Shown here: positions 17,158-21,483 of the stretch, piece after piece
Layout of the letters: each line of letters opens with the position of its first letter
Numbering within the stretch: position 1 is the first letter of the stretch
Source of the DNA: Eledone cirrhosa
Taxonomy: Eukaryota
DNA: 64,000 nt
Direction of reading: 5' to 3'
Assembly (NCBI GenBank): GCA_964016885.1
Contig: OZ024742.1
Span: 56,234,001 to 56,298,000 of the forward strand
Program-made: the position numbers and the translations under genes
The notes under the pieces: model-generated
Database searches by the model: none
Told to the model about the DNA's origin: nothing
What the model saw: the letters and a program-made list of their open reading frames with translations, nothing else

Positions 17158-20100
17158 TAAAGGACGTAAAATAAGAAAATATTTTTTTTAAAAAATTTAA
17201 AAAAAAATTTTTTTCTTACTTAAATTTTCACTCCAACTAATTAGTTTCTGCAATGGGATAAAGACAGTTACGTAATCCAACTGTCGAGAATTCATTGCGT
17301 CATCAGGAAGTCTATTCTCAGTAAAGTCTCCAGGCAATGCGCGGACACTGGCGGCTCATATAAAAATAATAATAATTCGGTAGATCGAACAGCTTGCGAG
17401 GACTGGATTCTTTGTACTGAAATTCTCACTGCTTCAAGTCAAATGGCCGATTCTAAAGAATCAATCACGTGACACAGAGGCTAGTTAGAAGGAATGGGAT
17501 GGTAAGATGACTGACGCCTACTAACACCCCAAAAAAAAAAATTTTTTTAGAAGTGGTTTTGACAAGTTTGCTCGACAAATCAGTGATTTGGAGATAAATA
17601 TAGATAATTTAATATATCAACTAACATAAGCGCACAGATGCACGCCCATGCCAGCAAATACACAGGTTATGTCATAGTACCTAGGTGGTTCAATGCAGGA
17701 GAATGCAGAACAATAATATAAAGGACGTAAAATAAGAAAATATTTTTTTAAAAAAATTTTAAAAAAAATTTTTTTCTTACTTAAATTTTCACTCCAACTA
17801 ATTAGTTTCTGCAATGGGATAAAGACAGTTACGTAATCCAACTGTCGAGAATTCATTGCGTCATCAGGAAGTCTATTCTCAGTAAAGTCTCCAGGCAATG
17901 CGCGGACACTGGCGGCTCATATAAAAATAATAATAATTCGGTAGATCGAACAGCTTGCGAGGACTGGATTCTTTGTACCGAAATTCTCACTGCTTCAAGT
18001 CAAATGGCCGATTCTAAAGAATCAATCACGTGACACAGAGGCTAGTTAGAAGGAATGGGATGGTAAGATGACTGACGCCTACTAACACCCCAAAAAAAAA
18101 AATTTTTTTAGAAGTGGTTTTGACAAGTTTGCTCGACAAATCAGTGATTTGGAGATAAATATAGATAATTTAATATATCAACTAACATAAGCGCACAGAT
18201 GCACGCCCATGCCAGCAAATACACAGGTTATGTCATAGTACCTAGGTGGTTCAATGCAGGAGAATGCAGAACAATAATATAAAGGACGTAAAATAAGAAA
18301 ATATTTTTTTAAAAAAATTTTAAAAAAAATTTTTTTCTTACTTAAATTTTCACTCCAACTAATTAGTTTCTGCAATGGGATAAAGACAGTTACGTAATCC
18401 AACTGTCGAGAATTCATTGCGTCATCAGGAAGTCTATTCTCAGTAAAGTCTCCAGGCAATGCGCGGACACTGGCGGCTCATATAAAAATAATAATAATTC
18501 GGTAGATCGAACAGCTTGCGAGGACTGGATTCTTTGTACCGAAATTCTCACTGCTTCAAGTCAAATGGCCGATTCTAAAGAATCAATCACGTGACACAGA
18601 GGCTAGTTAGAAGGAATGGGATGGTAAGATGACTGACGCCTACTAACACCCCAAAAAAAAAAATTTTTTTAGAAGTGGTTTTGACAAGTTTGCTCGACAA
18701 ATCAGTGATTTGGAGATAAATATAGATAATTTAATATATCAAGCTGGCATGGGCGTGCATCTGTGCGCTTATGTTAGTTGATATATTAAATTATCTATAT
18801 TTATCTCCAAATCACTGATTTGTCGAGCAAACTTGTCAAAACCACTTCTAAAAAATTTTTTTTTTTTGGGGTGTTAGTAGGCGTCAGTCATCTTACCATC
18901 CCATTCCTTCTAACTAGCCTCTGTGTCACGTGATTGATTCTTTAGAATCGGCCATTTGACTTGAAGCAGTGAGAATTTCGGTACAAAGAATCCAGTCCTC
19001 GCAAGCTGTTCGATCTACCGAATTATTATTATTTTTATATGAGCCGCCAGTGTCCGCGCATTGCCTGGAGACTTTACTGAGAATAGACTTCCTGATGACG
19101 CAATGAATTCTCGACAGTTGGATTACGTAACTGTCTTTATCCCATTGCAGAAACTAATTAGTTGGAGTGAAAATTTAAGTAAGAAAAACATTTTTTTTAA
19201 AATTTTTTTAAAAAAATATTTTCTTATTTTACGTCCTTTATATTATTGTTCTGCATTCTCCTGCATTGAACCACCTAGGTACTATGACATAACCTGTGTA
19301 TTTGCTGGCATGGGCGTGCATCTGTGCGCTTATGTTAGTTGATATATTAAATTATCTATATTTATCTCCAAATCACTGATTTGTCGAGCAAACTTGTCAA
19401 AACCACTTCTAAAAAAATTTTTTTTTTGGGGTGTTAGTAGGCGTCAGTCATCTTACCATCCCATTCCTTCTAACTAGCCTCTGTGTCACGTGATTGATTC
19501 TTTAGAATCGGCCATTTGACTTGAAGCAGTGAGAATTTCGGTACAAAGAATCCAGTCCTCGCAAGCTGTTCGATCTACCGAATTATTATTATTTTTATAT
19601 GAGCCGCCAGTGTCCGCGCATTGCCTGGAGACTTTACTGAGAATAGACTTCCTGATGACGCAATGAATTCTCGACAGTTGGATTACGTAACTGTCTTTAT
19701 CCCATTGCAGAAACTAATTAGTTGGAGTGAAAATTTAAGTAAGAAAAAAATTTTTTTTTAAATTTTTTTAAAAAAATATTTTCTTATTTTACGTCCTTTA
19801 TATTATTGTTCTGCATTCTCCTGCATTGAACCACCTAGGTACTATGACATAACCTGTGTATTTGCTGGCATGGGCGTGCATCTGTGCGCTTATGTTAGTT
19901 GATATATTAAATTATCTATATTTATCTCCAAATCACTGATTTGTCGAGCAAACTTGTCAAAACCACTTCTAAAAAAATTTTTTTTTTGGGGTGTTAGTAG
20001 GCGTCAGTCATCTTACCATCCCATTCCTTCTAACTAGCCTCTGTGTCACGTGATTGATTCTTTAGAATCGGCCATTTGACTTGAAGCAGTGAGAATTTCG

Positions 20101-21483
20101 GTACAAAGAATCCAGTCCTCGCAAGCTGTTCGATCTACCGAATTATTATTATTTTTATATGAGCCGCCAGTGTCCGCGCATTGCCTGGAGACTTTACTGA
20201 GAATAGACTTCCTGATGACGCAATGAATTCTCGACAGTTGGATTACGTAACTGTCTTTATCCCATTGCAGAAACTAATTAGTTGGAGTGAAAATTTAAGT
20301 AAGAAAAAAATTTTTTTTAAAATTTTTTAAAAAAAATATTTTCTTATTTTACGTCCTTTATATTATTGTTCTCCATTCTCCTGCATTGAACCACCTAGGT
20401 ACTATGACATAACCTGTGTATTTGCTGGCATGGGCGTGCATCTGTGCGCTTATGTTAGTTGATATATTAAATTATCTATATTTATCTCCAAATCACTGAT
20501 TTGTCGAGCAAACTTGTCAAAACCACTTCTAAAAAAATTTTTTTTTTTGGGGTGTTAGTAGGCGTCAGTCATCTTACCATCCCATTCCTTCTAACTAGCC
20601 TCTGTGTCACGTGATTGATTCTTTAGAATCGGCCATTTGACTTGAAGCAGTGAGAATTTCGGTACAAAGAATCCAGTCCTCGCAAGCTGTTCGATCTACC
20701 GAATTATTATTATTTTTATATGAGCCGCCAGTGTCCGCGCATTGCCTGGAGACTTTACTGAGAATAGACTTCCTGATGACGCAATGAATTCTCGACAGTT
20801 GGATTACGTAACTGTCTTTATCCCATTGCAGAAACTAATTAGTTGGAGTGAAAATTTAAGTAAGAAAAAAATTTTTTTTAAAATTTTTTTAAAAAAATAT
20901 TTTCTTATTTTACGTCCTTTATATTATTGTTCTGCATTCTCCTGCATTGAACCACCTAGGTACTATGACATAACCTGTGTATTTGCTGGCATGGGCGTGC
21001 ATCTGTGCGCTTATGTTAGTTGATATATTAAATTATCTATATTTATCTCCAAATCACTGATTTGTCGAGCAAACTTGTCAAAACCACTTCTAAAAAAATT
21101 TTTTTTTTTTGGGGTGTTAGTAGGCGTCAGTCATCTTACCATCCCATTCCTTCTAACTAGCCTCTGTGTCACGTGATTGATTCTTTAGAATCGGCCATTT
21201 GACTTGAAGCAGTGAGAATTTCGGTACAAAGAATCCAGTCCTCGCAAGCTGTTCGATCTACCGAATTATTATTATTTTTATATGAGCCGCCAGTGTCCGC
21301 GCATTGCCTGGAGACTTTACTGAGAATAGACTTCCTGATGACGCAATGAATTCTCGACAGTTGGATTACGTAACTGTCTTTATCCCATTGCAGAAACTAA
21401 TTAGTTGGAGTGAAAATTTAAGTAAGAAAAAAATTTTTTTTTAAATTTTTTTAAAAAAATATTTTCTTATTTTACGTCCTTTA
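17158..21483. repeat. Palindromic tandem array of ~561-bp HHR-bearing units (retrozyme-like family D)
   Basis: ~2.8 units in minus orientation (17158-18742) fused to ~4.9 units in plus orientation (18743-21483). Units are near-identical, and both outer ends stop at ACGTCCTTTA|(TA)n. Confidence 0.95.
19087..19168 (+). ncRNA. Type I hammerhead, one per unit (+: 19087, 19647, 20207, 20768, 21330; -: 17230-17311, 17791-17872, 18352-18433)
   Basis: ACTTC-CTGATGA-C GCAATG...CATTGC A-GAAA-CTAATTAG-TT^GGAGT. Helix II covaries in the diverged copy at 58526-58607. Confidence 0.88.

Follow-up and report, generated by a model that had tools for sequence, protein, structure and literature searches.

Non-LTR retrozymes are defined as tandem, non-coding units that each carry a type I hammerhead ribozyme (HHR), with a unit range given by Cervera and de la Pena 2020 as 150-450 bp (PMC7229834), while Li et al. 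(bioRxiv 10.64898/2026.07.22.740005) describe units of 51-972 bp, mostly in seven repeats or fewer and derived from the pLTRs of Penelope-like elements (PLEs). PLEs have been named as strong candidates for the mobilisation of animal retrozymes (PMC7229834), and it has been proposed that PLEs act as mobilisers, and circles as templates, of the non-LTR retrozymes (PMC7229834; 10.64898/2026.07.22.740005). In its main text, PMC7229834 has no occurrence of the word 'inverted', and in 10.64898/2026.07.22.740005 the word occurs solely within the title of a reference. Among HHRs, the 10.1-11.1 pair is the most conserved pair of stem II, with U-U as a tolerated natural mismatch, and dimers formed through palindromic stems III have been described (PMC3088659, including the legend of Fig S8).

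PLEs insert at (TA)n targets and show an inverted 5′-truncated copy and a one-sided tail of 30-40 bp (PMC8557442). Inverted copies are most often head-to-head and have palindromes at their junction, for which self-priming has been proposed (PMC3846280). In vitro, a purified PLE protein cuts AT-rich DNA on both strands, extends them and starts reverse transcription internally at two sites; HHR cleavage is not needed, and the start site is not homologous to the cut DNA (PMC11167929).

The locus described here lies in a 64-kb stretch of DNA, referred to below as the window, and consists of a head-to-head array of about eight 561-bp units at 17158-21483 (4326 nt in total) that sits within a TA microsatellite. 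Its period is 560-562 bp and, read in the sense of the HHR, the 5′ ends of its two arms meet at the centre. The array and its target have the following parts:

17000-17159, no strand: left target microsatellite, made of (TA)31, a TTTA-repeat interruption, (TA)29, AA and (TA)12
17158-18742, minus strand: left arm, 1585 nt or 2.83 units, with the RNA sense directed away from the centre and the inner end at phase 99 of the unit
18743-21483, plus strand: right arm, 2741 nt or 4.89 units, with the RNA sense directed away from the centre and the inner end at phase 64 of the unit
21482-21617, no strand: right target microsatellite, made of (TA)29, AA, (TA)6, the same TTTA-repeat interruption and then (TA)n

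These lengths bear out the 2.8 and 4.9 opposed units of a preliminary description, which had also stated, rightly, that both outer ends stop at one position of the unit: each lies 77 nt past the predicted GUU cut, where a TATAT belonging to the unit passes into the (TA)n tract. Beyond the microsatellites the flanking sequences are unique and unrelated to each other. The (TA)29-AA beside both ends may tentatively be read as a target duplication of about 70 bp in a tract that is itself repetitive; a run of 26-31 TA units followed by AA recurs in none of the 81 other runs of at least 10 TA units. The central join (18742/18743) has neither microhomology nor (TA)n, and two insertions at one target site were ruled out, the centre having no (TA)n and no duplicated target.

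Measured against unit L2 as reference, the eight units show 12 differences, of which nine concern the length or border of homopolymers, and three are substitutions; an earlier statement that the units differ almost only in homopolymers is thus nearly right. Each substitution is private to a single unit, and neighbouring units have no block of shared derived variants. A few homopolymer-border variants recur among the units; when these were compared for mirror symmetry, one was common to the mirror pair L3/R3 and another to non-mirror units. Because three substitutions per 4326 nt is so few, the array is likely a recent insertion, which we infer to stem from one event, in line with the recent origin first suggested for it.

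Every one of the eight unit positions that span the motif carries the predicted HHR, and all eight copies are identical (five on the plus and three on the minus strand), as had been counted before:

17230-17311, minus strand: type I HHR motif, core starting at 17306, first base after the predicted cut 17234
17791-17872, minus strand: type I HHR motif, core 17867, cut 17795
18352-18433, minus strand: type I HHR motif, core 18428, cut 18356
19087-19168, plus strand: type I HHR motif, core 19092, cut 19164
19647-19728, plus strand: type I HHR motif, core 19652, cut 19724
20207-20288, plus strand: type I HHR motif, core 20212, cut 20284
20768-20849, plus strand: type I HHR motif, core 20773, cut 20845
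21330-21411, plus strand: type I HHR motif, core 21335, cut 21407

We call the HHR from its core motif, from its three stems and from changes of base in a diverged relative (sibling 2, below) that preserve pairing. At a cut-off score of at least 6, the motif scan gave 20 matches in the window, compared with one in 30 block-shuffles summed. The core nucleotides are intact, and the motif has a 5-bp stem I, a 6-bp stem II over a C10.1-A11.1 mismatch and a GUU triplet. Sibling 2 has a C-G to U-A double change in stem II and a U-G to C-G change in stem I, both with pairing kept. Rfam returned no HHR match at the gathering score over the whole window and none by E-value on two units, where only two chance snoR144 rows appeared (E 1.5-1.6). 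Exact 24-nt and 21-nt HHR patterns had no match among metagenome contigs and none among viral contigs. Stem III is weak and fully palindromic (palindrome score 1.0), and two copies of it are predicted to cofold into a 12-bp duplex, in which respect the motif resembles the type I HHRs of PLEs and satellite dimers, whose weak palindromic stem III can pair between two copies. The array has C-A at 10.1-11.1, however, where the natural mismatch given in PMC3088659 is U-U, and the GUU triplet is a second non-canonical trait. Since this C-A, in place of a Watson-Crick pair, is kept in the array, in sibling 2 and in a relative at 53043, the predicted ribozyme is a conserved non-canonical variant rather than a canonical type I HHR. 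It is probably slow, and in the predicted fold of the unit circle stem I does not form (probability about 0).

Judged by its sequence-level traits, the unit fits the non-LTR retrozyme type, as the preliminary description had held: it recurs in tandem, is non-coding, measures a few hundred bp, carries a type I HHR motif and lacks an LTR, and its GC content is below 50% (0.35-0.37 in the array). Its length falls within the 51-972 bp given by Li et al. (10.64898/2026.07.22.740005). The array holds no ORF of at least 110 aa, and no ORF for a reverse transcriptase (RT) with a GIY-YIG endonuclease. It differs from the retrozymes of PMC7229834 in that its 561-nt unit exceeds the range stated there, and from those of both papers in that the multimer is divided into two head-to-head arms. 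As a circle, the unit is predicted to fold at a minimum free energy of -133 kcal/mol with 60% of bases paired (z of -5.0 in the sense and -2.6 in the antisense orientation, versus 60 shuffles). In an index of sequencing runs, 20 of 24 rows hold part of the unit's words; five rows from three organism labels, all DNA or unlabelled runs, hold 0.62-0.73 of them, six RNA rows stand at 0.04 and are not recognisably from the main DNA-holding organisms, and three further rows stand at 0.11-0.13, both levels being uninformative. A viroid-like or viral origin was ruled out by the integration in host microsatellites and by the existence of diverged siblings.

Two such siblings lie in the window:

57453-58782, no strand: sibling 2, head-to-head, about 82% identical to the array, period 541
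15412-15587, no strand: sibling 3, a non-palindromic inversion whose arms abut without overlap

Both arms of sibling 2 start at the HHR cut (at 0 and +1 nt), with two extra bases between them. Its left end falls on the end site of the array, and its right end lies 115 nt further on, at another TATAT, the intervening stretch forming a tail. The left arm of sibling 3 runs from 4 nt before the cut to this common end site; its right arm starts about 5 nt before the common end site and ends at the tail site. All six outer ends of the three family insertions are thus at a TATAT, with two of the unit's four such sites in use, and four of the six are at the common end site. Both siblings have the one-sided tail, which is lacking in the array, whose ends are symmetric. 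The equal ends of the array accordingly reflect a family-wide fixed start site used twice: the ends do coincide, as first described, but with four of six family ends at one fixed site the significance attached to this was overstated. At the inner side, the ends lie 0-4 nt from the cut in two of the three family insertions, which suggests that the HHR cuts in vivo; the stem III palindrome is found at the same place.

The mirror layout is real, but it is not special to the array, and its weight was overstated at first, since palindromic inserts form the background of the window. The window, masked and compared with itself, yielded many inverted pairs, and 17 palindromic inserts including the array were examined; candidates at 6975, 7104, 21655 and 41683 were set aside, being nested or lone hairpins from a single small family. 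In 11 of the other 16, a simple repeat lies no more than 8 nt from one arm end and the opposite side carries an extension of 35-154 nt that resembles the one-sided PLE tail; two are roughly symmetric and three unclear. Wherever both arms carry an HHR core (six of six inserts), the arrangement is head-to-head with the HHRs near the outer ends.

The family shares with PLEs the head-to-head inverted 5′-truncated copy, the HHR near the 3′ end, the (TA)n target, two fixed internal sites at which reverse transcription starts, the one-sided tail (in the siblings) and the palindrome at the inverted junction. Of the features of PLE-type insertion, a head-to-head inverted copy, a microsatellite target and fixed 3′ ends with an optional tail were found. 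The unit differs from PLEs in having no RT or endonuclease ORF, the family tail is about 115 nt whereas that of PLEs is 30-40 nt, and the array has symmetric ends and several laps per arm. The family ends coincide with TATA microhomology, in contrast to the PLE protein in vitro. Non-autonomous Chlamys PLEs such as MRC1 are likewise non-coding PLE passengers with multicopy tandem insertions, but they are green algal, mostly without an HHR and described as head-to-tail (PMC8557442). The array is likely to be a non-coding PLE passenger.

A remnant of a GIY-YIG endonuclease occurs in the window at 9994-10392 (Pfam E 3.7e-7). We take this remnant and fragments at 33574-34763 to be PLE from their motifs; Pfam gave nothing useful on the fragments. 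The look-alikes of the remnant are eukaryotic, most often arthropod or mollusc; taken with the base composition, they suggest that the host is an animal rich in microsatellites. None of 18 candidates for a longer, RT-bearing relative of the remnant was significant, and within the 64 kb no autonomous PLE shares sequence with the unit (tblastx against the PLE remnants included).

The centre of the palindrome coincides with a structure of the RNA, a coincidence that was noticed post hoc:

18743-18777, plus strand: 35-nt central spacer of the palindrome, equal to the inner stem of the hairpin that is strongest in the unit RNA
19296-19347, plus strand: one example of the full, G-U-rich hairpin of about 23 bp, at phase 56-107 of each unit, -27 kcal/mol

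The spacer folds at -21.3 kcal/mol as sense RNA, which ranks first of 560 windows, at -3.3 kcal/mol as antisense RNA and at -2.5 kcal/mol (rank 105 of 560) as cDNA. The inner end of the left arm (phase 99) is the 3′ base of the hairpin, that of the right arm (phase 64) is the 5′ base of the inner stem, and the axis of the array is within 1 nt of the hairpin axis. Siblings 2 and 3 can fold the G-U-rich hairpin too, in each case only on the sense strand. Across four sequences 89% of the cells pair, well beyond slid controls, but the covariation is no greater than in shuffles (256 of 500 and 99 of 500). RTs are known to stall at the 3′ base of an RNA hairpin. The idea that an RNase III-type enzyme had cleaved the hairpin was weighed and rejected, as the inner ends have no 2-nt 3′ overhang and one arm retains the hairpin.

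The reading that we favour, with a probability of roughly 0.6, is that a PLE RT and endonuclease cut the (TA)n tract, that both ends were primed at the proximal TATAT and that the cDNAs were joined at the hairpin. A PLE RT with its GIY-YIG endonuclease, acting in trans, would break the (TA)n tract; both ends of the break would prime cDNA at the same internal TATAT start site of a multi-unit RNA; reverse transcription on each side would stop at the strongest RNA hairpin; and the two cDNAs would be joined at their stop points to give the centre of the palindrome. That cDNA was primed on either side of a break in (TA)n had been put forward at the outset, and this gains support from the sibling footprints, since the arms of sibling 3 abut instead of mirroring each other, and from the action of the PLE protein in vitro (PMC11167929). 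It would also explain why the strong fold is on the sense RNA. The layout of sibling 3 is what one would expect had both target ends primed on a single RNA. A comparable process is the twin priming of L1, in which both target ends prime on one RNA and an inverted 5′ part results; L1 primes on poly(A) and its arms do not overlap. Sibling 3 resembles this non-overlapping inversion, whereas the arms of the array cover the same sequence several times. The match of the two axes, for its part, asks for two independent stops if priming was two-sided, which counts against that course.

Fold-back is the strongest of the rivals, and it accounts for the axis match within 1 nt from a single cause. A multi-lap cDNA would end at phase 64, fold onto itself at the quasi-palindrome, leaving a 1-nt bulge, and be copied as DNA into the second arm, which either joined the other target end at TATAT or was first symmetric and then changed by whole units. 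That the arms are exactly two units apart in length once the spacer is counted agrees with fold-back, and self-priming has a precedent in the proposal for PLE junctions (PMC3846280). In sibling 2, moreover, the mirror arms differ at 2 of 1214 nt, as against 3 of 113 nt between the tail and the first lap (Fisher p 0.005, post hoc), and one of the tail differences concerns a variant found in each arm but not in the second lap, the array or sibling 3. Against this stand the weakness of the hairpin on the cDNA strand and the other palindrome centres of the window, which measure 1-315 nt, are not generally hairpins and in several cases have little structure. The variants of the units are not mirrored consistently, and the abutting, non-overlapping arms of sibling 3 could not have been made by fold-back, barring a central deletion of a longer palindrome that happened to leave them adjoining. 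On balance two-sided priming is preferred with about the confidence stated above, and fold-back is considered unlikely for the array.

Growth in place is improbable. A small inverted insertion of PLE type would have been enlarged in each arm separately, by slippage or unequal exchange and without reverse transcription over several laps. Unequal exchange can act on tandem units, and PLE ends have been proposed to amplify locally (10.64898/2026.07.22.740005), but the inversion itself would be left unexplained, as inverted tandems do not come from unequal exchange (PMC5932611). The few recurrent homopolymer-border variants would suit such growth, yet three of three substitutions are private, and derived variants are not common to any run of adjacent units.

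Assemblies often go wrong at long palindromes and at homopolymer differences, and the best public run holds just 0.73 of the unit's words, but an assembly or amplification artefact (a fold-back chimera or a mis-sized repeat) is very improbable, because the unique and differing flanks exclude a whole-read fold-back, the diverged siblings and the 16 other inserts share the design with arms about 81-100% alike, and the ends of the array fall on family-wide sites.

All eight cut-site regions are identical, and the lap junctions are free of the scars that end-to-end jumps from one cleaved monomer to another would leave; at least about five contiguous units had to be present on the template, and the multi-lap arms together with the scar-free cut sites would call for either a ligated circle or an uncut multimer. 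A ligated circle, copied by rolling-circle reverse transcription as first proposed, is given slightly less than an even chance, an uncut linear multimer, which fits the data as well, is a plausible candidate held somewhat less likely, and it is unlikely that a later change of copy number or an assembly error lies behind the multi-lap arms. The two laps of sibling 2 differ, so that one circle would not suffice there without further events; a linear dimer of unlike units, fold-back or conversion from arm to arm would fit its lap mismatch better. The complete scenario, in which a dimeric Penelope-type RT rolled round a ribozyme-made 561-nt circle from both ends of the break, for 2.8 and 4.9 laps, and stopped on both sides at the conserved hairpin, is put forward as a doubtful, tentative one.

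No head-to-head retrozyme multimer appeared in the titles and abstract openings of the matches listed in literature searches (in one case the best 20 of 1,212), a body of work that lay mostly outside subscription journals. The class of element and the inverted layout are each already known, and their union, with the link between the junction and RNA structure, amounts to a modest variant. Since neither is new and the genome has many such loci, the interest of this one is in mechanism and not in a new kind of system.

A retrozyme family here bears PLE-specific footprints, namely arms arranged head-to-head, a pair of fixed start sites, a tail on one side and insertion into (TA)n. This touches on which enzyme mobilises animal retrozymes and whether circles serve as template (PMC7229834), and on the origin of the tandem and inverted structures of PLEs, called still undefined in PMC8557442. 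The unit is a small, defined RNA suited to the existing in vitro PLE assay. If the complete scenario were true, the array would be a direct genomic record of PLE enzymes reverse-transcribing a circular RNA, and RNA structure or the HHR cut would set the inverted junction of PLE insertions.

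The right flank of the array, the head-to-head concatemer of hammerhead retrozyme units, is directly adjoined by one copy of a small multi-copy family that contains an inverted repeat and always has (TA)n tracts on both sides. Several further families of type I hammerhead ribozyme (HHR)-like motifs occur in the window beyond those of the array, most with a palindromic stem III and four housed in head-to-head inserts; Rfam recognised none of these other motifs. Further palindromic inserts occupy simple repeats, and in most of them one arm extends further out than the other. Two of these inserts (53383-53777 and 62652-63104) belong to the same family and carry their tails on opposite sides.

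Features of the window

21618-21835 (adjoining the array), 6966-7425, 35435-35595, 41683-41867, 50984-51115: small inverted-repeat family
11202-12185, 12817-15030, 29555-29972, 63429-63762: regions of other HHR-like motifs
7570, 30497, 39749, 53043, 56736, 61726: single other HHR-like motifs
30749-31146, 31866-32262, 36573-36855, 38544-39459, 40510-41541, 49706-50141, 50601-50911, 50984-51095, 53383-53777, 56506-56955, 62652-63104: palindromic inserts
9994-10392, + strand: C-terminal GIY-YIG endonuclease remnant
33574-33972, 34059-34763, - strand: fragments resembling a Penelope-like element (PLE) RT
22258-27568, + strand: near-complete non-LTR retrotransposon (Pfam)
8086-9479: 27-bp minisatellite, 51 copies
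996-1440: 24/48/72-bp minisatellite
412-597, 9692-9904, 29019-29236, 47351-47544, 60540-60908: dispersed repeat of ~190 bp, copies 75-90% identical

The GIY-YIG remnant has an upstream cysteine motif and lies in an inverted arrangement (9876-10008/10980-11108); a search of the surrounding 9860-11210 found no HHR core. The minus-strand fragments, which are interrupted by microsatellites, resemble a PLE RT thumb and CxxC linker, a reading for which Pfam gave no support. In the retrotransposon, presumably L1/Tx1-like, Pfam places a zinc-knuckle ORF1 ahead of an AP endonuclease and an RT with an in-frame stop.
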